The notes: a model not told the origin generated them from the letters alone. A stretch of DNA of 20,000 bases from an uncultured virus (IMG/VR IMGVR_UViG_3300044844_000310) (IMGVR_UViG_3300044844_000310), one strand, 5' to 3'. Shown: positions 2,883 through 16,762, counted from the first letter of the stretch. Program-made: numbers and translations.

Positions 2883-2954
2883 CTAGCAACCTGCGAGGTA
2901 AGCCCACGCAACAAACATAAGGACAAGCATAGCCACCCATTCCGGCTCACTCAT
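2883..2954 (-). CDS. 23-aa hydrophobic peptide MSEPEWVAMLVLMFVAWAYLAGC
   Basis: not in the ORF track; TAATG overlap with the upstream stop; fills the gap exactly. Confidence 0.55.
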   Translation of the reverse strand: MSEPEWVAMLVLMFVAWAYLAGC

Positions 2955-3217
2955 TAGGCAATCCTCCAGACGCCTACATCACCGTGGTTGATCTCACGAA
3001 CTACGAACTTCTTGCTCTTAGCTGACGCATCCTTACTTCTTCTATACGCATGTACAGCAGCTCTGATGGAGCCGATCCCCTTGGGCGGAAGCTCCTCAAC
3101 AGGAACGATGAAGCACTCTCCAACGTGCAGTTCAACTATGGGGTACTTACGCATACGATCAGCTCGTGTGCTAGCGGGAACAGGGATATCGGTATAGATT
3201 TTGATAGTCATATTCAT
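2954..3217 (-). CDS. conserved basic phage protein (IPVP...KYP...VGECF.VP...KFVVR...VWR), putative DNA-binding
   Basis: 87 aa; recognisable family motifs; GGAG RBS. Confidence 0.75.
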   Translation of the reverse strand: MNMTIKIYTDIPVPASTRADRMRKYPIVELHVGECFIVPVEELPPKGIGSIRAAVHAYRRSKDASAKSKKFVVREINHGDVGVWRIA

Positions 3218-4532: not shown

Positions 4533-5704
4533 GCATCAATCTCAAGGTAAACAGACGAACCTACCGGAGCCGTGATATCTCGCTCAGTAATGGCCCACAA
4601 CGTCGGAACAGAAAGCGACGATGGCCACGGTGTGTATCCATCCGTAAGGACAACAACAGCCTCGGGTTTGATGTTCCGTTCTTCAATGAACGAGAAGATC
4701 TGGCGCATATCCGTACCGCCACCACCCTTGAATGAACGCTTGCACATCAAGGAGCCGAAGTTCTCTCGGTCATAAACTTGATGTTCTTGCACTTTAGCAT
4801 CCACTTCAATCAGGTGCAATGCCTCCGGCGTAACACTTTCGCAAATGCCGATGATTTCGGAGAGGAATGAAGCTAGTTGTCTATCCTGAATAGATCCTGA
4901 CGTATCTACAGCCACAAGCAGAGGCCCCATAGACTCAGAGATTGTTGACGGCATGTAAATGTCCTGCGCAAGCCAACGTCGGCTAGGTCTACGCCATGTT
5001 GAGTCATCCTTACCCGTGCTCACTGCAGACATGAACTCACGCAACTGCTCACGCCAGTCCACCTTGGGCTTCATCAAATCATCGAATGAGCGATGCTGAT
5101 CACCTGCCATCTTCCCTGCAAGAAGCGCACCCTGTCGTACAGCTTGCTCGATCTCCTTACTCAGAACCTCCTGCTCTTCAGCACTCAGATCACTGAAGTC
5201 ATGGATATCAAACCCTTCAGCGCCCTCACCGTTCTCGCCACCTTGGTCCTGACCCTTACCGCCTTCCTTGAGCTTATCGAAGACCTCTTGCGTGCTCATA
5301 CCGCGAAACTTCTCATCAACAAGCGCTATCTTAGGAAGCTCGATGAAGTCGGGGTATTTTTTAGACATGTCTAAAATTTCAAGGTTGATCACATAGTCTG
5401 CAGAGATATTGGCAAGGCGAGCGTTCTCCTTCCACAGATGTTTCCAGAGCCAGTGATGCTGATAGACCTTGTGCAGATTCTCATGCAGGATCACAGCGTT
5501 TAGCTCCTTGTCCTCCAACCCTTCAACGAACGCCTTACCGTAGGTCACATCACGCCCATTGGTGTAAGCCGTAGGGCACTCCTCAGTCACATCAGTCCTA
5601 CCAACCATCAGAATAGATGAGAAGGCTACCGTAGCTTTGTGCGCCATCATTCGAACATGAGCACGCTGTACGCGTTGCTCTGATGTCAGCTTGTTCATCG
5701 TCAT
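4529..5704 (-). CDS. HExxH putative metallopeptidase + VWA domain protein (DUF2201-like)
   Basis: PTAYTNG, HENLH (HExxH), ADYVIN; C-terminal MIDAS VAVDTSGS, GGGGTD, VVLTDG. Confidence 0.9.
   Translation of the reverse strand: MTMNKLTSEQRVQRAHVRMMAHKATVAFSSILMVGRTDVTEECPTAYTNGRDVTYGKAFVEGLEDKELNAVILHENLHKVYQHHWLWKHLWKENARLANISADYVINLEILDMSKKYPDFIELPKIALVDEKFRGMSTQEVFDKLKEGGKGQDQGGENGEGAEGFDIHDFSDLSAEEQEVLSKEIEQAVRQGALLAGKMAGDQHRSFDDLMKPKVDWREQLREFMSAVSTGKDDSTWRRPSRRWLAQDIYMPSTISESMGPLLVAVDTSGSIQDRQLASFLSEIIGICESVTPEALHLIEVDAKVQEHQVYDRENFGSLMCKRSFKGGGGTDMRQIFSFIEERNIKPEAVVVLTDGYTPWPSSLSVPTLWAITERDITAPVGSSVYLEIDA
5358..5377. repeat. palindromic motif variant with 2-bp centre (inside CDS)
   Basis: TTTTTAGAC-AT-GTCTAAAAT. 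Confidence 0.55.
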
Positions 5705-6018
5705 TCTCCTTGTATCGCTATGAATTGTTGTGGTGAGAGGAACGTATCTCCTTGTGAGGTACGCACGGATTGTTCCCAGTCTGTTATTTGCTTGGGTGTA
5801 AGCCCGGTACAGTCATACTCAGGGAAGGAAGTCACGGTCACATCAGGAGTTTTGTAGTCCATGATGTACTTGATGTTTGGTTCATCCTGCCTATACGCAT
5901 CACCGATACCTATCCCATACTGAGCGAGAATCGCCTGTACCTTATGTGCTTGTTCAAGGGGCAGGACGACATTCCCACCCCAACTCAGGCTAAGCCTGCC
6001 GTAGACTTCCTTCTTCAT
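5701..6018 (-). CDS. hypothetical protein between the AAA+ and VWA genes
   Basis: 105 aa; GAGGTG RBS; ATGA overlap downstream. Confidence 0.75.
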   Translation of the reverse strand: MKKEVYGRLSLSWGGNVVLPLEQAHKVQAILAQYGIGIGDAYRQDEPNIKYIMDYKTPDVTVTSFPEYDCTGLTPKQITDWEQSVRTSQGDTFLSPQQFIAIQGE

Positions 6019-7121: not shown

Positions 7122-7140
7122 TTTTTAGACCGTCTAAAAA
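7122..7140. repeat. 19-bp palindromic motif
   Basis: TTTTTAGAC-C-GTCTAAAAA, between a stop codon and the ATPase RBS. Confidence 0.95.
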
Positions 7141-7141
7141 A

Positions 7142-8008
7142 TCAAACAAAGTTAAACTTATCTAACAGGGCGTCTACCTCTTCCTTGGCATAGCCACGCA
7201 CTACGTCATCCTTACGCAGATCATTCACATCCAAGCCAACCAACGTCATCCGCATATCTTTCTTTAGCTGAATCAACTCAGGATCTTTTACCAAGTTGAA
7301 TCCATCCAGTGCATCGCACAGCTCAATCGCACTCTCCAGAGTGGACTCATGTACCCGCCCCTTCTTACCATCATCCTCAACACGAAGCTGATTACTGATC
7401 TTTGTAAGCGAAGTCTTGATACGATCCCTGACCTCAGCCATAGCCTCAGTCACACGCTCCTCCTGCCTACGAGCAAACTGCTCCCTCAGAATGTTTAACC
7501 CTTCCGTACCAATGTCCACACGGAAGTCACCCGCAGTAGGTAAAGGGTAGGTCGCATAACGCAACTCAAACTTGGCAGGGATCTCAGACGGATCTGGATA
7601 ATCACTGTGCTTGAACAGCGCACCCAACGAGAACTGCGCCGACTGAATCAACAGCGAATAGGATGTTACGAAGGCATTGACGAGGCTCTTGTAGTGGTCC
7701 TCATGCTCACCCAACTCCTTCATGTACCGCTCGAAACTAATGGCAGGTAGAAGGCGAGTGCCACTGTCGCTCCAAGGGAGCGTTCTTGAGGCATGCCACG
7801 CTCTAATGATCGAACCATACTTGTTGATGTTGATCAGCTCTTGAGATCCTGCCAACAAGTTTTTCTGGTAAACCCCGGCGTTTGCCGTTGTCGCACCTTT
7901 GTTCTGACCTACCTCATCGGACACTTCCCTGTCCTGCTTCTTGCCTGTCCATCCTCTGATGCTCAGGTCAACCAACATCGCGCTCGAAGCAATCGTTACA
8001 TCGTTCAT
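7142..8008 (-). CDS. DUF3150-like phage protein
   Basis: start revised to MNDVTI (GGGAG RBS); motifs LV.LSI..W.G.K.D, TLPW.D.G.RLLP, LG.LF...DYP, P.P..GDFR. Confidence 0.7.
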   Translation of the reverse strand: MNDVTIASSAMLVDLSIRGWTGKKQDREVSDEVGQNKGATTANAGVYQKNLLAGSQELININKYGSIIRAWHASRTLPWSDSGTRLLPAISFERYMKELGEHEDHYKSLVNAFVTSYSLLIQSAQFSLGALFKHSDYPDPSEIPAKFELRYATYPLPTAGDFRVDIGTEGLNILREQFARRQEERVTEAMAEVRDRIKTSLTKISNQLRVEDDGKKGRVHESTLESAIELCDALDGFNLVKDPELIQLKKDMRMTLVGLDVNDLRKDDVVRGYAKEEVDALLDKFNFV

Positions 8009-8021
8009 ATCAACTCCCGGT

Positions 8022-8040
8022 TTTTTGGACCGTCTAAAAA
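8022..8040. repeat. 19-bp palindromic motif (1 mismatch)
   Basis: TTTTTGGAC-C-GTCTAAAAA, just before the RBS of the DUF3150-like gene. Confidence 0.9.
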
Positions 8041-8093
8041 ATTCCCTCCGGTAAGGCCGGAGTACCTGTGGTTGATCTCTCAACTTAAATACT

Positions 8094-8122
8094 ATTCTAC
8101 ACTAACTTATATCTAATGTCAA
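8094..8122 (-). promoter_or_regulatory. sigma70 promoter P1
   Basis: TTGACA (8122-8117), 17 bp, TAGAAT (8099-8094). Confidence 0.85.
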
Positions 8123-8416
8123 GTTCGCCATAGTAACCAATGTATCCACCTCTATACCCATACGACATGCTGATTCAGGATCAACTGTCGTCCTACCTAC
8201 TGCATCCCATCCACTAACAAATGAGTAGTGTTTATCCTCAACCACCCGCCCGCGTTTGTCTTTATCATTCTTGTACTCTACCCATGACAAGCGCTGTAGA
8301 ACTGCAATGATTTCCTTACCCGTCGTGCGGTGTACTAACGTAATGCGTATCGTAGGAGTCGTGATGGCTCCTGTCTTATCTTTCTTATCAAACGCTGTTA
8401 CTTCCCACTCGTTCAT
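8102..8416 (-). CDS. hypothetical protein (paralog-like to 8413..8670)
   Basis: 104 aa; MxxWE start and GIx...LxxMAN end. Confidence 0.7.
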   Translation of the reverse strand: MNEWEVTAFDKKDKTGAITTPTIRITLVHRTTGKEIIAVLQRLSWVEYKNDKDKRGRVVEDKHYSFVSGWDAVGRTTVDPESACRMGIEVDTLVTMANLTLDIS

Positions 8417-8670
8417 GACTCTTCTCGCATCATGTTAGCCATTGCACGGAGTGCTGATAGGTCTATTCCTGCTCTTTCTAAGAAGTCTGGAGTCGCTGTG
8501 ATTGTTTTTCCTTCTTCTCCGGGCTTTGATATGCCCCCGACCTCACCCATCTCGGGGTTCCTTACGTTTTTACAGAATAGGGCCTTTGCTTTACCGTCGT
8601 TGGCTATCAACTCAAAGTCTACCCATCCGAACTTATCTGTATCTACACTAACAATCTCCCACTTGTCCAT
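8413..8670 (-). CDS. hypothetical protein
   Basis: 85 aa; GGAGG RBS. Confidence 0.75.
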   Translation of the reverse strand: MDKWEIVSVDTDKFGWVDFELIANDGKAKALFCKNVRNPEMGEVGGISKPGEEGKTITATPDFLERAGIDLSALRAMANMMREES

Positions 8671-8824
8671 ACATCCTCCGAAATTAGGACGGTTTCACCT
8701 GCAACCGAAAAGGGTCAGCCCCGAACTGGAGAGAATGCTACGGAGCACCGCATAGGTTCTGACTGACTGACATGGATGTTTCGTACCATCGGGCTCTCAT
8801 GCCTTACCCTTTTAATTTATCTAC

Positions 8825-9274
8825 TCACCACCAGTGTGGTTCATGACTGCGCTCCCATGATGCAAAGGGTTTGCTGTGATAGTAGGCACGGTAGGATTCT
8901 ACCGCGTCATTGGTTTTGTACTCGTCAGGCATAGCCAACGCGAACGGCGTCAGGCCCACAGAAGGAGTAGAAGCTAGTTCTTCTGAAGAAATTAGACCGT
9001 CTAAAATTTGTAGGCACTTGTGATCACGTGTGTGACCCCACCGCTGTTGCCACTCGGCATGAAGAGCATAGGCTAACTTGAATAGCCACAATGCGTTGTC
9101 GCGTGAACGCCCTGCCCATAGGGTACAGGGATGGTTGGCATGAGTGGGACGGTACGGACCACTGAGCACGGTCGAGAGCATCTGAGTGCTCTCTAAAATC
9201 ATTTTGTTCACATGCTTATCGCAATGATAAAACGCAGACACGGCAGGGTCATAGTCCAAGACAAAGATGTTCAT
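8825..9274 (-). CDS. pyrimidine dimer DNA glycosylase / endonuclease V-like protein
   Basis: MNIFVLD...HCDKHVNKMILES.QMLST...H.NHPC..W...AMPDEYK...YR.YY family signature. Confidence 0.8.
   Translation of the reverse strand: MNIFVLDYDPAVSAFYHCDKHVNKMILESTQMLSTVLSGPYRPTHANHPCTLWAGRSRDNALWLFKLAYALHAEWQQRWGHTRDHKCLQILDGLISSEELASTPSVGLTPFALAMPDEYKTNDAVESYRAYYHSKPFASWERSHEPHWW
8989..9007. repeat. 19-bp palindromic motif (core intact, inside CDS)
   Basis: AAATTAGAC-C-GTCTAAAAT. Confidence 0.75.
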
Positions 9275-9277
9275 CAC

Positions 9278-9541
9278 TCACTCCATAGGTTTCATCAATA
9301 GCAAGACGGGCTCGACCTCCTCGCACCTTCTCTGCACCCACACAGGGAACTCATTCCAGTCAACCTCCTGCCAGTCATGCCGATCTTTATCGTATGGATA
9401 CTCCTTGCTTATACCTAATGTGTAGCATTCTTTCATGCCTCCATGAGTCAGCCCGTATGCGTACGCTTCGCGCTCAGTTACCAGATCGACAAAAGGATGG
9501 CGATTGTTAATGACTTGATAGTGCTCTTCCCACTTAGGCAT
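9278..9541 (-). CDS. hypothetical protein
   Basis: 87 aa; GGAGG RBS; C-terminus resembles 11594..11863. Confidence 0.7.
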   Translation of the reverse strand: MPKWEEHYQVINNRHPFVDLVTEREAYAYGLTHGGMKECYTLGISKEYPYDKDRHDWQEVDWNEFPVWVQRRCEEVEPVLLLMKPME

Positions 9542-9542
9542 C

Positions 9543-9902
9543 TCACACCTCCCATGTAACTTTTACTACTTTAGATTTCTCCGAGTCATAACTTGCCCAC
9601 CCTTCCGCATCGTACTGATACTCAAAGAGCCTAGACCTAGACTCATCCGGGTACACCACCATCCATGCGTGCTTCTTCACCGGGAAATTAGCTAGACCAA
9701 CATCAGGAACAGTACCGGAGCGGAGCCGATACAAAAGCCTCGCCCTCTTCTCATGGTGCAACCAATGCACGAACCGCTCAAGCTCGGCGCGCGCCTCCTC
9801 ACGCTCGGAGTACTCCTCAGAATCATGGTGCCTGTCCTCATCCACAGTGTGGTCAAGGGTCAGCAGGTAATCCTCCATCATTTCATCCAGATCGCTATAC
9901 AT
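9543..9902 (-). CDS. hypothetical protein with acidic N-terminus
   Basis: 119 aa; GGAGGTGTGAGATG junction identical to the one at 9539-9552. Confidence 0.75.
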   Translation of the reverse strand: MYSDLDEMMEDYLLTLDHTVDEDRHHDSEEYSEREEARAELERFVHWLHHEKRARLLYRLRSGTVPDVGLANFPVKKHAWMVVYPDESRSRLFEYQYDAEGWASYDSEKSKVVKVTWEV

Positions 9903-9903
9903 C

Positions 9904-10128
9904 TCACACCTCCACTTCAGTTATCTCTGTCACCGTCGCACCATACAGCCTACCCCACCGAGCTGCGTGCACTTGAGCATCCTCGATGTACTTGAACCGT
10001 ATGTCCTCCATCCAGACATTCTGATCGTCGAGCCACACTGACACGAGGAACCGTATCTTGCTGTTGTAGCTGATTGGTGAACGTCTTGCGCGCTTGTACT
10101 CACGCTTGGCATCGCGTTCCATTTTCAT
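9904..10128 (-). CDS. hypothetical protein
   Basis: 74 aa; ATGA overlap. Confidence 0.7.
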   Translation of the reverse strand: MKMERDAKREYKRARRSPISYNSKIRFLVSVWLDDQNVWMEDIRFKYIEDAQVHAARWGRLYGATVTEITEVEV

Positions 10129-10808
10129 TGTTCATTCTCCTCACGTTTTACTGCATCAATAAAATAGAGCACAACGCTCTCATACACAGACCTGCGCTCA
10201 ACCTCGTCCCATCCCATGTACTTGCTGTGCGCCTTGCGATAACCCACACCTTCGACGTACCCATCCACATCCATGATCTTGAGCAGGGTCAATGCTTCCC
10301 TGTGCTTTTTTGTAAGCCTATCCACGTAGCGCTTCTGCACATTCGCTTGACGAGATAGAACCGTGTCGAAGAACTTGTTCTCATAGCTTGGGGGTGTGTT
10401 CCATCCGAACTCCAGCTTCTTCACTATCTGCACATACTCTTGGGGCCTATCGTCTGAGCGTGTGAGGGCAGGAGCGAATTCAAACTGAATGACATACAGA
10501 TCCTCCTTGGTTCTATAGTGCTTGGTCTTGTACCCCACGCCGGGAATCAGTGTGTCGTATGGAGCAGTGTGCAGTTGCACCAGCTTTTCCTTGTTTCCAT
10601 TGCGCAGGTACTTGATCGCCCGCTCCTGACTGGGTTTGCAGAAGCTCGCATAGAATGCACTCTCATCGCCTTCGCGTTTGTATTCACGCTGCTCCATCCA
10701 CTGTTTATATTGCGCTTCAAGGTTGCTGTACTTCACCGCAATGCGTGCCGTCGCAGGTAGGTCGTAGATGTTTTTCCACTGTGCCTCCCACCATTGTTTG
10801 TTACTCAT
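10125..10808 (-). CDS. hypothetical protein with two GVGY-motif repeats
   Basis: start revised to MSNKQWW (GGAGAG RBS at 10813-10818); IPGVGYK and VEGVGYR repeats. Confidence 0.75.
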   Translation of the reverse strand: MSNKQWWEAQWKNIYDLPATARIAVKYSNLEAQYKQWMEQREYKREGDESAFYASFCKPSQERAIKYLRNGNKEKLVQLHTAPYDTLIPGVGYKTKHYRTKEDLYVIQFEFAPALTRSDDRPQEYVQIVKKLEFGWNTPPSYENKFFDTVLSRQANVQKRYVDRLTKKHREALTLLKIMDVDGYVEGVGYRKAHSKYMGWDEVERRSVYESVVLYFIDAVKREENEQ

Positions 10809-10850
10809 CTCACTCTCCAAAAATTAGCAACTGTGGGGCTACGCCCCACG

Positions 10851-10869
10851 TTTTTAGACCGTCTAAAAA
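10851..10869. repeat. 19-bp palindromic motif flanked by two GC hairpins
   Basis: TTTTTAGAC-C-GTCTAAAAA. Confidence 0.95.
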
Positions 10870-10892
10870 ACGGTGCGAACTTGTTCGCACTA

Positions 10893-11159
10893 CTAAAAAT
10901 TAACTCTCAAGCACTCATCTCTAAGGCCCCACAACTCACGCTCGCTTGTCTCCTGCGTCATGGGATATTCGTTGTCTTTACTCCACACGCTCAGATGGCG
11001 TAGCGTTGTTCTGCTGTAATGATCGGATGTCTTTAGATACCCAAGCCCCGGCACATACGCACCCACTGGAGTCGCGTAGCTGATAAAGATCCGCGTGCCG
11101 TTCGTATACTGTTCTTCGTGGCATTGCTTGGCACCGAAGGTTTTGCGTTCGTAGTTCAT
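10893..11159 (-). CDS. conserved phage protein (SY.TPV...YS.TT.RH family)
   Basis: start revised to MNYERK (ATGA overlap, GGAGG RBS). Confidence 0.75.
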   Translation of the reverse strand: MNYERKTFGAKQCHEEQYTNGTRIFISYATPVGAYVPGLGYLKTSDHYSRTTLRHLSVWSKDNEYPMTQETSERELWGLRDECLRVNF

Positions 11160-11458
11160 TGCAGTCCCTCCGGTCCAAAAAAGTTTAGTTTCTCCTCGTC
11201 GGTCATCAATTCGTAGCAGATAGCCCACAAGTCACCATCCTGATGCAACCGCCACACGTTACCGTCTTTATGGTATTCAGCCTTGTCCAGAATCGCATCC
11301 CATGCTTCCCAATAGTCATCGCCCGGACCCGTCATGCAAGCAATGAACTCCCACGAATATGGGTCTAAACCCCAATCGTCAGCATTAAAAGAGTCAACAA
11401 AGTCTCGCGGTATGTAGATGCCACGGGCATCGCTCAAAAGATGGGCTACAGCATTCAT
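11156..11458 (-). CDS. conserved phage protein (RGIYIP..F...YWEAW...L.QDGDLW)
   Basis: start revised to MNAVAH; GGAGAG RBS adjoining the palindrome. Confidence 0.75.
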   Translation of the reverse strand: MNAVAHLLSDARGIYIPRDFVDSFNADDWGLDPYSWEFIACMTGPGDDYWEAWDAILDKAEYHKDGNVWRLHQDGDLWAICYELMTDEEKLNFFGPEGLQ

Positions 11459-11469
11459 GATTCTCTCCG

Positions 11470-11488
11470 TTTTTAGACCGTCTAAAAA
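11470..11488. repeat. 19-bp palindromic motif
   Basis: TTTTTAGAC-C-GTCTAAAAA, adjoining the GGAGAG RBS. Confidence 0.95.
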
Positions 11489-11543
11489 ACCCTTGGTAGG
11501 GCCAAGGTGCCCTGCGGGTGGCTGACCACCCGACTTGAGATAC

Positions 11544-11572
11544 ATTCTACAGTGTTTTTACTATCCTGTCAA
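11544..11572 (-). promoter_or_regulatory. sigma70 promoter P2
   Basis: TTGACA (11572-11567), 17 bp, TAGAAT (11549-11544). Confidence 0.85.
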
Positions 11573-11593
11573 GTTTTTGACAGTAGTGGTTTT

Positions 11594-11863
11594 TCATATC
11601 GTCATCAGGAGCAATGGCTGTAGTTCTTTCAATCTGGTGAGTATGTCCTCGGGGAAGTAGTCCTTCTCCCTCTCCCAGTCGATTTCTGTCTCTATACCGT
11701 GAGTGAACCCATTCTGCATGTGCCGTATGGCAGTTACTAATTTACCTTCAGCTCCCTCATAAAACCCCACGTACAAAGAATAGTCATCTTTACCTTTAGT
11801 CAGCATGACCCATGCTGACTTGCCCGGATCTACTTCACCCCAATGCTCTTTTATCTCACTCAT
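11594..11863 (-). CDS. hypothetical protein
   Basis: 89 aa; GGAGGAG RBS. Confidence 0.75.
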   Translation of the reverse strand: MSEIKEHWGEVDPGKSAWVMLTKGKDDYSLYVGFYEGAEGKLVTAIRHMQNGFTHGIETEIDWEREKDYFPEDILTRLKELQPLLLMTI

Positions 11864-11928
11864 GTCTCCTCCGTGGGGGCCACTGTTGTAGCCCCACGCT
11901 TTGCGTTCCTAGACTCTCTTAACTAGCT

Positions 11929-12792
11929 TCAATCTTCTTCGTCCTCCCACTGGTCTGCATCGTACGGCGTGCCGACGATAGCACTTGCGTTGATCTTAAG
12001 CGGGTTAAAAAAGTTGTTCTTGTAGAACGTACTGTGCGGAGAGACTGGTGATGATGGCGGTGCGTCCTTCGACCTCTTGAGAAAGTCCTTCATCTTCTCT
12101 CCTGTATTCAACACATCTACCTGCCACGGAATCTCTCCCGGCTTGGCAGTGCCCGATTCAAACGCGTCTAGCAAACGCATCATGGTTTCCTCGCTCACAA
12201 TACGCACGCTCTTCTCACGCGCACCCATGCGCTTCCATTGATCCCTTGTGTTGTGCAGGATGGCGGGAGTGAGTGGGGCTAGAAGATCGAACTTGTACGA
12301 TGCAGATGAATTCTTGATGACCTCACCCGTCTTTAGATCCGTCACCCCTCGCATGTAGTGCGAAGATGATCCTCCTGCAGCTATCGTTCGATAGTCATTC
12401 TTGTACTCGATCTCATAGTTCTGCATGTCCAGCCTGATATTGGAACTGGGCAAAATGATATGGTGCTTTAACGTGTGTTCATAGCCATGGGCTTCTGATC
12501 CTCCGTAGACTTCAAGGCCGTATGCCTCGCTCCCTGTTCGGGCATTGGTGGTCGTAACTGAGTTGCCTTTGTACCTTCCTTCACGCAGAGATTGGTTCTG
12601 GCGCAGGGTGTGAAGCATGTAGTCGATCTCGGGATAGTACACACCTTCGTCGTAGAGAGAAGAGGATCTACGAGTGTTCTTTGTCTCATAAATGGGAGAC
12701 AGGTGGCCTTCAGATTGGAGCCTAGCGAGGAAAATTGGGTATAGCGAAATCTCAAGACTCTCAAGAAGCTCAGGGGATATGGGTTTAGACAT
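11929..12792 (-). CDS. hypothetical protein (287 aa)
   Basis: long ORF on the operon strand; no recognisable motif; weak RBS. Confidence 0.7.
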   Translation of the reverse strand: MSKPISPELLESLEISLYPIFLARLQSEGHLSPIYETKNTRRSSSLYDEGVYYPEIDYMLHTLRQNQSLREGRYKGNSVTTTNARTGSEAYGLEVYGGSEAHGYEHTLKHHIILPSSNIRLDMQNYEIEYKNDYRTIAAGGSSSHYMRGVTDLKTGEVIKNSSASYKFDLLAPLTPAILHNTRDQWKRMGAREKSVRIVSEETMMRLLDAFESGTAKPGEIPWQVDVLNTGEKMKDFLKRSKDAPPSSPVSPHSTFYKNNFFNPLKINASAIVGTPYDADQWEDEED

Positions 12793-12977
12793 GGATCTAA
12801 TCTCTTAAAAGTGGTTAATGAGCTCATAGTTTGGCGTGGTAAGAGATGGGAGTCAAGCGAAAAAATGAGACGATTGAGGCGAATGGTCTTTTTGGTGTTT
12901 TTTGGGGGCTTGAGAATGAGACTTTTAGAATGTGGAAAATTGTCTTAGAAAGCCACCAATGTGTTGAGGTTCTGTAG

Positions 12978-12996
12978 TTTTTAGACGGTCTAAAAA
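12978..12996. repeat. 19-bp palindromic motif (opposite orientation)
   Basis: TTTTTAGAC-G-GTCTAAAAA. Confidence 0.95.
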
Positions 12997-13063
12997 GTGA
13001 GAACTGAGAGACTTGAGAAATGGGGTTTGGTCGATTTTGGGCCTATCTATCTTATAAAATTTG

Positions 13064-13076
13064 TAAGTTGTTGATT
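13064..13076 (-). promoter_or_regulatory. IHF-binding consensus site
   Basis: minus strand AATCAA-CAAC-TTA matches WATCAANNNNTTR; lies in a long non-coding AT-rich region. Confidence 0.55.
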
Positions 13077-13312
13077 GTTGGTGTGATATGAGAGATATGA
13101 TGGATATAAGTTAGATATGCCGAAATATAGCCACTTACTTGAACACTGAACGGATCAAAGCCCCCCTGAAAGGAAGCCCTTTTCACTTACTATATATATT
13201 AATCTATATATATTATTATTATTATTTCTCTTAGGCTTTAAAGCGCCCGCGCCCCTGCCTTTCCCCTGCGCCTTGGCCCTCCGTCCTAGAAATACAACTA
13301 GCTTCTTCCTCG

Positions 13313-13331
13313 TTTTTAGACCGTCTAAAAA
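13313..13331. repeat. 19-bp palindromic motif between two ~30-bp direct repeats
   Basis: TTTTTAGAC-C-GTCTAAAAA; flanked by CCCTCCGTCCTAGAAA..AACTAGCTTC at 13277-13305 and 13333-13363. Confidence 0.95.
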
Positions 13332-13401
13332 ACCCTCCGTCCTAGAAACTAAGAACTAGCTTCATGGGCGCGCCCGCGCGCCGTGCCCGAATCGCGGGCA
13401 C

Positions 13402-13426
13402 AAAAAAGCCCCGCCGGAGCGGGGCT
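13402..13426 (-). terminator. Rho-independent terminator
   Basis: minus strand AGCCCCGC-TCCG-GCGGGGCT-TTTTT. Confidence 0.9.
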
Positions 13427-13438
13427 GAGAGGGAGGAA

Positions 13439-13513
13439 CTAAGGGATCAGGTCACACAATGCGGGAATGACAATCAAACCCACAATCACAAACCACAGCA
13501 GATACTTATCCAT
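13439..13513 (-). CDS. 24-aa membrane peptide MDKYLLWFVIVGLIVIPALCDLIP
   Basis: not in the ORF track; overlaps the stop of 13506..14240 and ends just before the terminator; alternative start 13525. Confidence 0.55.
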   Translation of the reverse strand: MDKYLLWFVIVGLIVIPALCDLIP

Positions 13514-14240
13514 TCTTGGCACCATTTTTCTTTGTTGACTCGGCGACAACCCTGCGAGCTTCGACTAGCTCTTTAAGAAGGGTGCCCGCTTCGAGCTTAT
13601 GGCGCTTCTCAATTTCCTCGAAGGCAATAGCGGTGAGCTTAAAGTTCATGAACTGGGTGCACGCTTGCACCCACAAGTCGGCGGGATTCATATCAGGCAC
13701 CGACACATTGACACTAATAGACTCAGGCGAGCCCTTCACGGCGGGTTTTGGTTGCACCAAGGGAGTCGGCGCACTTTGTGCGGTTTGTGGCTCAGCGGGC
13801 ACTGTAGGCACTTGCGCGGTCGGTTCACTAGTCGGTGCGGGCTCAGGCGCCTTTTCAGCATGTACTTTCTTATACGTGTTAGGCACTACGATGCCCGCCC
13901 AATTAACCCATGTCTTTGCTTTGCGCAATCTGTCAGCATTCTGTTGAGTGGGAAGGATCTTATATTCAAAGGCGGTCTTGAGCACACCAAGCAAACCATC
14001 CACGTCTGAGATCTTAGCATCTTCAATGGCGGTCTTGATGTCAGCCTTGATTGCAGTCCACTTGTGTGCACTAAAAGCCTTGAATACTGGCACGATTGCC
14101 TTTCGAAGCTCACCATTCTTTGAGATCAGCTCAGCTTGTTCATCTTTCAGCTTGTCGAGGCGCGCGCTGTTGGTCTGGTAGGCGGTGCAATCAGTCACAA
14201 AAGAAACCAACAAGGCCTTATCGTTTGCGTTCATGGTCAT
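13506..14240 (-). CDS. hypothetical protein with Pro/Ala/Thr-rich linker; first gene of the leftward unit
   Basis: start revised to MTMNAND (GGAG 8 nt upstream); helical N- and C-terminal parts joined by a PEPAPTSEPTAQVPTVPAEP linker. Confidence 0.8.
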   Translation of the reverse strand: MTMNANDKALLVSFVTDCTAYQTNSARLDKLKDEQAELISKNGELRKAIVPVFKAFSAHKWTAIKADIKTAIEDAKISDVDGLLGVLKTAFEYKILPTQQNADRLRKAKTWVNWAGIVVPNTYKKVHAEKAPEPAPTSEPTAQVPTVPAEPQTAQSAPTPLVQPKPAVKGSPESISVNVSVPDMNPADLWVQACTQFMNFKLTAIAFEEIEKRHKLEAGTLLKELVEARRVVAESTKKNGAKNG

Positions 14241-14291
14241 GGTACTTACTCCAAAAAGAAACCCGAGAAGCCGTCTCGGTGCGGTGTGCAT

Positions 14292-14322
14292 ATTCTAACC
14301 CATATGCAAGGGATACTGTCAA
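14292..14322 (-). promoter_or_regulatory. sigma70 promoter P3 (19-bp spacer)
   Basis: TTGACA (14322-14317), 19 bp, TAGAAT (14297-14292). Confidence 0.65.
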
Positions 14323-14329
14323 GCTCTCA

Positions 14330-14348
14330 AATTTAGACAGTCTAAAAA
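14330..14348. repeat. 19-bp palindromic motif upstream of the P3 -35 box
   Basis: AATTTAGAC-A-GTCTAAAAA. Confidence 0.85.
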
Positions 14349-14753: not shown

Positions 14754-15263
14754 ATGGATATAACGCCATACAATTTCGCCATTCCCCTGATGGTTCAGGG
14801 TGACCCAGACCCGATGCTCTTTATGGAGGGCAGTGCGGTTGTCTCCGATCCGGTCAAAGATGCCAAATGGGCGAAAGCTGCGGAAAGCGCCATCCGTGCC
14901 AATCCCTCGGCTAAAACAGAAATCCTCCACGCGGCCCCCAGTGCCCCTGCACTCCGCTCACTCCAGCGTTCAATGGAGAAGTATGACGGCCCGATGCCCG
15001 TCAATAAGGAGCAGTGGCAGAACTTCGTCCTGCAGAAATACTACGAGCAGGCCAACGATATCGATCCCAAGATAAGCAAACCCGCGCTAGATGCCCTTGC
15101 ACGTACCAACGTAGTGGGGCTTAATCAGGATGTGCAGGAAGTCAACATCAGCGTGCGTAGCACCGTCGAGATCGAAAGCGAACTATTACAGGTTGTAAAC
15201 AGCCTGCTGAATAAGCCCAAAGAGAAGGTGCTCGATGCAGAGGAAGGAGAATGGACGGAATAA
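14754..15263 (+). CDS. putative terminase small subunit
   Basis: directly upstream of and overlapping TerL; ALDALAR..VGL C-terminal motif; ATG at 14754 preferred to TTG 14697; called mainly on position. Confidence 0.55.
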   Translation: MDITPYNFAIPLMVQGDPDPMLFMEGSAVVSDPVKDAKWAKAAESAIRANPSAKTEILHAAPSAPALRSLQRSMEKYDGPMPVNKEQWQNFVLQKYYEQANDIDPKISKPALDALARTNVVGLNQDVQEVNISVRSTVEIESELLQVVNSLLNKPKEKVLDAEEGEWTE

Positions 15264-16762
15264 CCCCCGAACAACTCCAAGCCGCTCTTGCTGCAGCCTC
15301 CCCTGCCCAGCAGATCAAGGTTCAAAAACTCGTTGAAGAGCTCAACAAGCGCAAGCGGCGAGAAGAGGCGCAGGATGATTTCCTAGCGTTCGTTAGAACG
15401 CAGTGGCCTGATTTCATATCAGGTGCCCATCACAGGCGCATTGCCAAGCTCTTTGAGGCGGTAGCCCGAGGAGAAAAGAAACGAATCATCATCAACTTAG
15501 CGCCACGACATACCAAATCTGAGTTTGCGTCCTTCCTGTTTCCCGCATGGTTCCTTGGTAAAAACCCCAAGAAGAAGGTGATGCAGGTCTCCAATACGGC
15601 TGAGCTCGCTGAAGGTTTTGGTCGTAAAGTGCGAAATCTGCTGGAGACGGAGGAGTACCGTGAAATTTTTCCAGATGTGGAGCTCAGATCGGATTCGAAG
15701 GCTGCGGGACGCTGGAACACAAATTTTGGTGGTGATTACTACGCTACTGGTGTTGGCGCTGCTTTGGCTGGTCGCGGCGCTGATATTGTCATTATCGATG
15801 ACCCTCATACAGAACAGGAAGCTCTTCAAGCCGCCTTCAACCCCGGCGTGTATGACAAAGTGTACGAGTGGTACACAACGGGACCCAGACAGCGTTTACA
15901 GCCGGGCGGTGCCATTATTATTGTCCAGACACGCTGGTCAATGCGCGACCTGACAGGTCAGATCCTAGAAAACGCAATACAAAGACCGGGCGCTGACAAA
16001 TGGGAGGTGTTTGAGTTTCCCGCCATTCTCCCTTCAGGTGCTCCGCTTTGGCCTGAGTTTTGGTCACAAGAAGCCCTTGAAGCCATCAGAGCTGAAATTC
16101 CAGCAGGCAAATGGCAGGCGCAGTACCAGCAGAACCCAACGTCCGATGAGACGGCCATTATCAAACGCGACTCATGGAATACATGGACCAAGGATGACCC
16201 GCCTGACTGTGAGTACACGCTGATGAGTTTCGACTGTGCGTTTGAAGCGAAGCAAACGGCTGACTACAGTGCCATGACCCTGTGGGGAGTATGGACCAAC
16301 GAAGAGGATAGTGAGGACCACGTGATTCTTCTTGATGCGTGGCGGGGCAAGTTGGAGTTTCCTGAGTTAAAGGCGAAGGCGTTGGAGCTGTATAAGGACG
16401 CTGAGCCGGACAGTGTGATCATCGAAAAGAAAGCGACCGGAGCGCCATTGATCTACGAGCTACGTCGTATGGGTATCCCCGTGCAAGAGTTCACACCATC
16501 GAGGGGCAATGACAAGATTGCACGACTTAATGCCATATCGGACATCTTTGCTTCAGGGCGGGTCTGGGCGCCAGACCGCAGGTGGGCGGAGGAGGTCATT
16601 GAGGAGGTAGCGAGTTTTCCAAACGGTAGAAACGACGACTATGTAGATACCGTCTCGCAGGCGCTGAACAGGATAAGGAAGGGAGGTATGGTGCGTACGC
16701 GCCATGACGAGAGAGATGATGACTATTACGCCTACCGCGGGCGTAAAGCAGCGTATTACTAG
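15251..16762 (+). CDS. terL: terminase large subunit (Terminase_6-like)
   Basis: IINLAPRHTKS P-loop, G.GAD.VIIDD Walker B, QTRW coupling motif, YQQNP, RNase H-like C-terminal domain (SFD, ADYSA, IEKKA.G, DDYVD). Confidence 0.95.
   Translation: MDGITPEQLQAALAAASPAQQIKVQKLVEELNKRKRREEAQDDFLAFVRTQWPDFISGAHHRRIAKLFEAVARGEKKRIIINLAPRHTKSEFASFLFPAWFLGKNPKKKVMQVSNTAELAEGFGRKVRNLLETEEYREIFPDVELRSDSKAAGRWNTNFGGDYYATGVGAALAGRGADIVIIDDPHTEQEALQAAFNPGVYDKVYEWYTTGPRQRLQPGGAIIIVQTRWSMRDLTGQILENAIQRPGADKWEVFEFPAILPSGAPLWPEFWSQEALEAIRAEIPAGKWQAQYQQNPTSDETAIIKRDSWNTWTKDDPPDCEYTLMSFDCAFEAKQTADYSAMTLWGVWTNEEDSEDHVILLDAWRGKLEFPELKAKALELYKDAEPDSVIIEKKATGAPLIYELRRMGIPVQEFTPSRGNDKIARLNAISDIFASGRVWAPDRRWAEEVIEEVASFPNGRNDDYVDTVSQALNRIRKGGMVRTRHDERDDDYYAYRGRKAAYY

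Follow-up and report, generated by a model that had tools for sequence, protein, structure and literature searches.

The leader of gene 32 in phages T4, T2 and RB69 carries the founder of the CPK-1 type pseudoknots, an H-type fold with coaxial stems, a first loop of 1-2 nt over a second stem of 6-7 bp, no nucleotide between the stems (PMC11262651) and U/A-rich RNA nearby. It serves a single gene as the autogenous operator of gp32, and a 2010 review regards it as possibly the only viral pseudoknot in translational autoregulation (PMC3014915). The gene 32 mRNA is described there as the most stable of T4. RNase E cuts it at -71, 4 nt upstream of the knot at -67 (PMC3014915). T4-type phages also carry PeSL cassettes, in which a sigma70 promoter, a structure and a Shine-Dalgarno (SD) sequence recur in variable early regions. 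Their stem-loops are located within the promoter, upstream of it or directly ahead of the start site, and are reported to terminate upstream transcripts, and the word pseudoknot is absent from that account (PMC2839356). Structured RNA is found just after early promoters in HK022 put, lambda nut and rrn boxA/boxB. The put RNA is a double hairpin of ~65 nt in which sequence-specific residues are required (PMC8632103, PMC9378689); it suppresses terminators and binds the beta' zinc-binding domain (PMC9378689). In E. coli, 5' leader pseudoknots of tisB +42 and timP act in cis on the downstream start (PMC7708055, PMC11228461).

The window, meaning the whole 20,000-nt stretch of uncultured phage DNA analyzed here, contains three cassettes of promoter, structure and SD on the minus strand. 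Unlike that of PeSL, their structure lies inside the transcript, 7-36 nt past the -10 box in leaders of this clade, and is knotted. The gene 32 knot shares the H-type design, the coaxial stems predicted here and the phage leader location, but the present element has a first stem of 3 bp and a last loop of 2 nt, and occurs at three promoters and the helicase gene of one phage, before unrelated genes. Leaders P1 and P2 have two tandem structures, as put does; the upstream one is missing at P3 and in the leaders of relatives G002 and G004, leaving a conserved unit of 21-22 nt. The tisB and timP knots differ in belonging to single-locus toxin mRNAs with a sequestered ribosome-binding site and an antisense RNA. 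The closest known phages compared were the HTVC023P-type phages, distantly related with terminases 50-54% identical, and MinM2/Pag-Yong1; MinM2 has an ATPase, VWA and DUF3150 block in common with the window phage. A descriptor of the knot had no match in 35 kb of HTVC023P, and its 2 matches in DSL-LC04 and 10 in MinM2 are raw counts.

A probable small pseudoknot in three leaders

The three leader hairpins are very probably halves of a 22-base H-type RNA pseudoknot at the start of the phage's early messages. Three bases lying 1-2 nt 5' of each hairpin stem can pair with loop bases 1-3, giving a stem 1 (S1) of 3 bp, a loop (L1) of 1-2 nt, a stem 2 (S2) of 6 bp, no linker between the stems and a loop (L3) of 2 nt, 21-22 nt in total. 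The S1 pairs are AGG/CCU at P1, GGG/CCC at P2 and CCG/CGG at P3. On the minus strand, the P1 pseudoknot occupies 8046..8067 (S1a 8067-8065, L1 8064-8063, S2a 8062-8057, S1b 8056-8054, L3 8053-8052, S2b 8051-8046) and the P2 pseudoknot 11491..11512 (S1a 11512-11510, L1 11509-11508, S2a 11507-11502, S1b 11501-11499, L3 11498-11497, S2b 11496-11491). The P3 pseudoknot, at 14263..14284, starts 7 nt past the -10 box, at the inferred +1/+2 of the transcript. Both stems are predicted to stack coaxially into nine pairs.

A sequence-only reading of this DNA had reported a 6-bp stem with a 5-nt loop as the structure shared by the leaders. All of its quoted sequences were located on the minus strand where it had placed them, with the stems at 8062-8046, 11507-11491 and 14279-14263 and the first hairpins at 8084-8071 (P1) and 11532-11515 (P2), and the three compensatory pairs that it counted between the P1 and P2 stems are real. 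Each stem is, however, stem 2 of a pseudoknot whose stem 1 had been missed. The 5'-terminal hairpins of P1 (8071..8084, minus) and P2 (11515..11532, minus; 7 bp) are variable, and the former is missing from several relatives. A resemblance between the P2 stem-loop and an LldR-type operator was dropped, as the stems vary freely.

A plain hairpin of 6 bp and 5 nt is no rarity: the window has 34 strand-hairpins of this kind, and its shuffles average 20. The added S1 pairing is present in 3 of these 34, exactly P1, P2 and P3, against a shuffle mean of 0.12 and maximum of 2 (0 of 100 shuffles reach 3), a control that is partly circular because the descriptor was written after these three sites were seen. 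The folding tool modeled plain secondary structure without pseudoknots; it gave unremarkable z-scores for the leaders (0 to -1.8) and hairpin energies of only -5.8 to -9.6 kcal/mol. A 2-nt L3 spanning a 3-bp S1 is tight, and this counts against the fold. Comparison with Rfam, which the sequence-only reading had proposed, yielded no catalogued family: the window and 11 homologous loci gave nothing near gathering score, and the 3 and 5 sub-threshold matches were not credible.

Conservation and placement in related phages

Among related loci that hold the palindrome described below, 17 of 21 promoter-leader hairpins carry the S1 pairing, at an offset of 1 nt (n = 7) or 2 nt (n = 10), against a background of 77/2272 hairpins elsewhere. 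None of the 21 pairs at offsets 0 or 3-8, and mirror geometries occur at most once. The element thereby agrees with the CPK-1 class in its L1 of 1-2 nt, pairing being confined to offsets 1 and 2 among offsets 0-8, and in the absence of a nucleotide between the stems, since in those 17 the 5' flank is paired to loop bases 1-3, and pairing to loop bases 3-5 occurs in 0/21. Stem 2 is likewise 6 bp at the three window sites and at 14 aligned sites, a length that is part of the descriptor. At the 14 sites, which were chosen by the descriptor, 126 of 126 cells pair, eight of the nine pairs change on both sides and the junction G-C pair is invariant (14/14). Stem 1 swaps between AGG/CCU and GGG/CCC, always paired, across the P1, P2, ATPase and helicase positions (the L275 row was left out of this comparison); these switches are possibly not independent, since recombination may homogenize cassettes. 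By sequence comparison, compensatory changes in stem 1 as well as stem 2 maintain the pseudoknot, and the earlier proposal of a conserved structured leader RNA is borne out and strengthened.

The fold varies at its edges. Stem 2 has 5 bp in L323, L1 has 3-4 nt in the P3 leader of L022 and in two helicase copies, and 5 of 22 sites with promoter and palindrome lack the knot. When P3 genes were picked by protein homology, the knot was scored at 6 of 12 loci (4 distinct); at the other six none was scored, and these were read, by eye alone, as a shorter-stem variant. Four P3 variants have stems of 4-5 bp. Three further descriptor matches are uncertain: position 14613 of L159, which overlaps a likely start site, 12745 of L069, and 3104 of L151, which competes with a UUCG hairpin.

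The knot lies close to the 5' end inferred for early transcripts and, at fewer sites, in intergenic positions just before a ribosome-binding site. In four close phages, a promoterless knot with no U-run lies directly before the helicase gene and ends 12-13 nt 5' of its start codon; overall, the distance from knot to start codon ranges from 11 to >60 nt. Internal copies are preceded by U-rich tracts. The unit of promoter and knot heads different genes in relatives and moves between genes. Relatives G001 and L074 stood in for the phage beyond the window, and a pattern scan for the P1/P2-type knot returned only 3 stretches in 2 known contigs.

Promoters, palindromes and downstream genes

The promoters P1 (8094..8122, minus) and P2 (11544..11572, minus) are sigma70-type with 17-nt spacers and 11/12 matches, in keeping with the strength that had been ascribed to all three. 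That ascription is not supported for P3 (14292..14322, minus; -35 at 14322-14317, -10 at 14297-14292), a promoter-like site that the sigma70 scan did not list and whose 19-nt spacer recurs in L022 and L179. The first gene after P1 (7142..8008, minus; SD 8018-8014) encodes 288 aa, 30% identical to a MinM2 protein annotated as DUF3150; that after P2 (11156..11458, minus; SD 11468-11463) encodes 100 aa of PHROG 21544, of unknown function; and that after P3 (13506..14240, minus) encodes 244 aa without family or fold match and is closed by a canonical intrinsic terminator-like site at 13399..13426 (minus). Genes behind knots are mutually unrelated, and none matches a gp32-like family.

A 19-bp palindrome occurs in eight window copies at no more than one mismatch, six of them without an adjoining knot. 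The two that follow knots lie at 8022..8040 (P1; 1 mismatch) and 11470..11488 (P2), and their left arm is the U-tract of these leaders, as the sequence-only reading had noted. Another copy, at 14330..14348, is upstream of the P3 -35 box. The others are at 7122..7140 between the DUF3150-like and ATPase genes, at 8991..9005 (core) within the coding sequence 8825-9277, at 10851..10869 flanked by two plain hairpins outside the knot family, and at 12978..12996 and 13313..13331 in a large intergenic gap. The palindrome is probably a module apart from the knot, a putative DNA site for a phage protein, and probably supplies U's only incidentally. Exact searches of bacterial and archaeal genomes gave 40 single matches; no record matched twice, so nothing at this stringency points to a host regulon.

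At least 5 U's directly follow stem 2 at 16 of 28 sites, and 12 of these 16 runs are a palindrome arm; the remaining 12 of 28 knots lack 5 U's within 0-2 nt, so that a U-run directly after the stem is not conserved with it. The gap at the P1 position is 4 nt in the window, and not the single G that had been described, and 12 nt in L017. P3-type leaders retain 5-7 U's in 8 nt without a palindrome; in the window this spacer is 14253..14261 (minus), between the P3 knot and the SD at 14252-14249.

Readings of function

It is fairly likely that the knot acts post-transcriptionally, on stability or translation, and we tentatively favor protection from decay as its main job. The knot would be a constitutive cis element that prolongs the life of the downstream message. 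At P3, nine coaxial pairs would sequester the 5' end; at P1 and P2, the knot would be an obstacle to an RNase E-type nuclease whose scanning depends on the 5' end; and at internal copies, a cut in the preceding U-rich tract would leave the knot at a new 5' end, where it would again obstruct scanning. Protection may be reinforced by docking of ribosomal protein S1, and ribosome loading is possibly helped. Scanning RNase E bypasses a stem-loop but is impeded by coaxial pairing, as in a pseudoknot, with little effect of composition (PMC9943677). The position of the P3 knot 7 nt past the -10 box and that of the internal copies after U-rich tracts would count in favor of protection, as would the arrangement of cut site and knot in gene 32. 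Against it, the T4 review ties gene 32 stability to translation and not to the knot (PMC3014915). Longer pairing also protects better, and a knot of 11 bp impeded scanning only modestly (PMC9943677), so a 9-bp knot should protect weakly. RNase E itself is an assumption about the host. The fixed 3+6 geometry and the invariant junction pair are better explained by a partner that recognizes the knot than by passive obstruction.

Such a partner could be ribosomal protein S1, recruited by the knot and the adjoining U-rich strand to load the 30S subunit on early messages, while the palindrome may fold the start region; we consider this possible but unlikely. The 5' H-type pseudoknot of tisB is reported to be required for binding of protein S1 and 30S, and protein S1 to bind pseudoknots in SELEX, tmRNA, preQ1 and rpsO RNAs (PMC7708055). 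A standby site of the tisB type combines a 5' pseudoknot with a single-stranded region; here, P3-type knots are followed by a U-rich strand and then the SD, and P1/P2-type knots by the palindrome. The U-rich spacer and SD of the P3 type would fit docking, as would the fixed geometry and the short distance of the helicase copies from the start codon. Yet most leaders have good SD sequences, and the knot is not associated with SD loss (9/16 vs 24/38, p = 0.76; the start calls were noisy). The stems of the tisB knot are of other lengths (stem 1 of 9, stem 2 of 5), and a compact, stably folded preQ1 knot is described as not bound by protein S1 (PMC7038950).

The knot also sits right after early promoters and travels with them between genes, and in G001 the promoter pattern had no sense-strand match over the 39 kb downstream. 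An exact boxA-like 11-mer occurs in 11 more distant loci and in none of the palindrome-clade records checked. These observations would suit an RNA-only or factor-assisted antitermination or anti-pausing element on host RNA polymerase, put-like or replacing boxA, which we regard as improbable. In a specific form, itself quite improbable, the knot would be a protein-free signal that makes long early transcripts termination-resistant, put-like at a third of the size and with a different fold; as part of the same joint reading, and no less improbable, the clade would use it where more distant relatives carry boxA-like sites. The analogy to put and nut, made in the sequence-only reading, fails on the defining features that were checked and stays a minority rival. 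The knot has 22 nt and one invariant pair, against the long, sequence-specific put; promoterless knots lie right beside ribosome-binding sites; a knot-like match and the boxA-like motif occur together in L151; and a canonical terminator closes the P3 gene. Lambda nut needs boxA, boxB and the N protein, none of which was found here: the three leaders have no match to the boxA consensus (two 1-mismatch matches lie elsewhere in the window), and no N-like family with an arginine-rich motif was identified among the 37 window proteins, most of them without annotation.

It is similarly doubtful that the knot serves a phage RNA-binding protein as a translational operator, in the way that the T4 leader pseudoknot serves gp32, with joint shutdown of early genes. 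The CPK-1-type geometry is common to the T2 gene 32 knot (PMC11262651, PMC3835772), a U/A-rich stretch follows many copies, and two clade-restricted early proteins are candidates. The gene 32 operator lies on the mRNA of its own binding protein, whereas here the genes behind the knot are unrelated, no RNA-binding protein was found among the phage proteins searched, and the palindrome is already a candidate shut-off site at the same leaders. Proteins encoded at 11929-12792, 13506-14240 and 5701-6018 are restricted to the clade. The two candidates have 9 and 33 homologues without Pfam domains and no usable atlas match; one model is poor (pLDDT 38) and the other (69.8) had no fold match at E<=0.001, and the protein at 2954-3217 has no convincing solved relative.

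An attenuator or terminator yielding leader RNAs of 35-60 nt, as first proposed, is very unlikely: all three window sites fit a loose terminator pattern (20 such sites in the window vs 17.0 expected), many stems precede U's, including those of P3-type leaders, and PeSL stem-loops terminate (PMC2839356), but the reading is weak because the P1/P2 U-tract is a palindrome arm and 12/28 knots lack a U-run, as do the promoterless helicase copies; the hairpins are weak, the four P3 variants have short stems, the S1 pairing is left unexplained and no conserved alternative antiterminator fold was seen in the leaders. The palindrome would not act as an RNA antiterminator there, since polymerase on its left arm has yet to transcribe the right one. 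Weak termination may occur at P3-type leaders; the knot is likelier to protect or present the message than to end its transcription.

None of the titles and abstracts searched describes the motif, and four short motifs had no match in 6 supplementary files of PMC10690425. The element is a very small H-type knot that recurs at several promoters and at one internal gene, conserved in its structure and not in its sequence. Because its second stem is invisible to standard folding and covariance tools, knots of this kind probably pass for plain hairpins or terminators in many phage genomes. The natural compensatory variants are a ready mutant series for asking whether a 9-bp knot stabilizes mRNA, loads ribosomes or affects polymerase, and any positive answer, if true, would provide a 22-nt portable expression part.

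Phage and promoter setting

The window comes from an uncultured tailed phage whose terminase (15251-16762) shares 54% identity with those of phages 023Pt_psg01 and HTVC027P and 51% with that of HTVC023P. Divergent from the packaging genes is a minus-strand block of small uncharacterized genes, accompanied by an ATPase, a VWA protein and a DUF3150-like gene. Because the window's leftmost ORFs have identical translations in the longer record G001, where polymerase, helicase and primase-like genes follow, G001 was assumed to derive from this phage or from one almost identical to it.

The stems, loops and U-runs quoted in the sequence-only reading were all found. A strong promoter had been placed at each leader; P1 and P2 fit this (11/12 sigma70 matches). 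P3 has a 19-nt spacer and was not among the sites that the promoter scan listed. The P3 promoter-like site (14292-14322, minus strand) has this spacer in common with related records L022 and L179, and may be activator-dependent or weak. An extended -10 promoter-like site was identified by eye upstream of P3 (14394-14422, minus strand), as also in P3 orthologues; this candidate promoter would put the palindrome at 14330-14348 into the transcript. Hairpins with a 6-bp stem and 5-nt loop number 34 across the strands of the window (shuffle mean 20), and terminator-like sites 20 (17.0 expected); by themselves, these patterns are unremarkable.

A predicted pseudoknot in the leaders

Comparison of P1, P2 and their homologues revealed that the third loop base covaries with the base five positions 5' of the stem, AGG being paired with loop CCU and GGG with CCC. 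A 3-bp pairing (S1) of the 5' flank with the loop was therefore predicted, and P3, unrelated in letters, obeys it (CCG with CGG). The resulting segment order, S1a-L1-S2a-S1b-L3-S2b, with a 6-bp S2, an L1 of 1-2 nt and zero linker, is that of a predicted H-type pseudoknot, hereafter the knot, and its geometry is that of CPK-1 (definition in PMC11262651; see also PMC3835772). The leader structure proposed earlier is kept across relatives, but a plain hairpin misses S1, and the fold is predicted to be a pseudoknot.

A strict descriptor matched exactly P1, P2 and P3 in the window (stems at 8062-8046, 11507-11491 and 14279-14263, minus strand; 3/34 hairpins), against an average of 0.12 matches over 100 shuffles, no shuffle yielding as many as three. 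Since this descriptor was composed after the sites had been seen, S1 was retested on hairpins picked without it, and occurred in 17/28 hairpins of 135 distinct promoter leaders versus 77/2272 hairpins elsewhere. At palindrome-holding loci, 17 of 21 promoter-leader hairpins have S1 (three of them the window's P1-P3), at offset 1 in seven and offset 2 in ten; among these 21, offsets 0 and 3-8 gave none and mirror geometries at most one. When 294 palindrome site-orientations were scanned with a broad descriptor, a knot lay within 70 nt upstream of the palindrome in 17/22 with a promoter versus 3/272 without, many of the 272 being chance matches in unrelated contigs. Fourteen sites with a 2-nt L1, chosen by descriptor so that their alignment describes the pairing rather than testing it independently, had 126/126 cells paired. 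Both partners vary in 8/9 of their pairs; four versions of the outer S1 pair occur, and the junction G-C is invariant. AGG/CCU and GGG/CCC are both represented at four positions (P1, P2, ATPase and helicase), and switches between them may be non-independent through inter-cassette recombination.

At 12 loci found by P3 protein alignment, independently of the descriptor, a knot was scored 5' of the gene in six (4 distinct sequences) and not in the other six (4 distinct), which, read by eye, contain a variant form whose S2 is 4-5 bp long and whose S1 is centred on CG. Ahead of the helicase gene, the knot ends 12-13 nt 5' of the start codon in the four closest records (G001, L323, L155 and L156; 74-100% identity), with an L1 of 2-4 nt and with promoter and U-run both absent. 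A wider scan of 19 of 24 helicase-gene loci gave two knots (both among the closest four), one weak distant match and 16 loci without. A longer-knot search scored 26 of the 135 leaders, compared with 12 when they were reverse-complemented and 2.3% when they were shuffled; longer knots are predicted at a few promoters in distant relatives, e.g. L078. Larger H-type knots are predicted directly after promoters at L078 4307 (-), L022 4137 (+) and L237 847 (-). The descriptor had no match in 35 kb of HTVC023P; raw, uncalibrated matches numbered 2 in DSL-LC04 and 10 in MinM2.

The Rfam comparison proposed earlier gave no match for the window and homologous loci, and a literature search, in which two catalogue supplements were covered partly or not at all, found no description of the motif. 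PeSL cassettes (PMC2839356, PMC4122927) have a similar layout but differ from the knot leaders in structure and its position. We conclude that the predicted leader pseudoknot is very probably real and that it is uncatalogued.

The palindrome as a separate module

As had been proposed, a palindrome's left arm forms the U-tract of P1 and P2. This 19-bp palindrome has eight copies in the window at up to one mismatch, spanning 7122 to 14348; beyond the P1 and P2 leaders, it is found 5' of the P3 -35 box, within the large intergenic gap and inside a coding sequence. Each of five related records has 2-8 copies, and in more distant relatives different palindromes occupy the corresponding place. A search of bacterial and archaeal genomes returned 40 matches, each in a different record. 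In the simplest reading, the palindrome is a putative DNA site for a phage protein; an RNA hairpin is also possible because variants with a 2-nt centre (records L355 and L356) or a G-T pair occur.

Copies within coding sequences (L023 6830 and 8800; window 8991-9005) are gained or lost between orthologous genes. L023 also has low-complexity repeats (15613-16105) that yield proline/leucine-rich open frames on both strands. Early leaders of L025-L071 and L105-L148 carry, 5' of ribosome-binding sites, a palindrome particular to each relative group, and L046 has two different ones; some are embedded in longer imperfect hairpins, so that DNA operator and RNA hairpin are both possible. The gene-free gap at 12860-13400, bounded by a terminator on one side and a promoter lacking a knot on the other, contains short repeats and AT-rich runs as well as two palindromes, and is a candidate origin-like region.

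Candidate roles of the knot

In palindrome-clade leaders, 7-36 nt separate the -10 box from the knot, which in P3 begins at ~+1/+2. A 5'-terminal hairpin often precedes the knot, whose distance from the start codon varies (11 to >60 nt). Promoter and knot move together between genes in relatives, and U-rich tracts precede internal knot copies. Protection of the message from RNase E-type decay is tentatively ranked first because it is the sole model found that would explain a knot over a hairpin, 5' and internal placement, and freedom from a fixed sequence. PMC9943677 describes RNase E scanning as impeded by coaxial pairing, e.g. pseudoknots, whereas simple stem-loops do not hinder it; longer pairing protects more, and at 11 bp the effect is modest. 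PMC3014915 describes T4 gene 32 mRNA as cut at -71, with a knot at -67 and unusual stability.

Docking of the knot to S1/30S (PMC7708055, PMC11228461 and PMC7038950) follows close behind as a less probable role, although SD loss and the knot do not track each other. Put-like antitermination appears unlikely: the knot's position and 11 more distant loci with a boxA-like motif favor it, but the knot's size relative to put (PMC8632103 and PMC9378689), the internal copies, and the joint occurrence of a knot-like match and a boxA-like motif in L151 count against it. The exact 11-mer lies at L025 4380, L026 64, L040 7512, L041 7376, L046 1690, L047 1850, L053 7506, L122 909, L133 10129, L142 7060 and L151 3057, in several loci with a small hairpin upstream and the clade's palindrome or an SD downstream. 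We take it to be akin to the boxA of rRNA operons, and its presence suggests that antitermination in these relatives draws on the Nus system of the host.

Slightly more doubtful still is a gene-32-like operator, in which the knot would be the binding site of a phage protein; no candidate with a supporting family or fold match was found. Two early proteins (11929-12792 and 13506-14240, minus strand), present in knot-bearing relatives and absent from the more distant loci searched, are candidate palindrome or knot binders, and family and fold searches gave no match for them. The attenuator or terminator of the sequence-only reading fares worst: among 28 knot sites (three uncertain; hairpin energies -5.8 to -9.6 kcal/mol), at least five U within 0-2 nt of the stem occur at 16, in 12 via the palindrome arm, and are missing from 12, and termination leaves S1 pairing unexplained, although P3-type leaders keep a U-rich run and weak termination there is possible.

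If the knot serves in decay protection, it would impede RNase E-type scanning, and the phage message would thereby be protected from decay.
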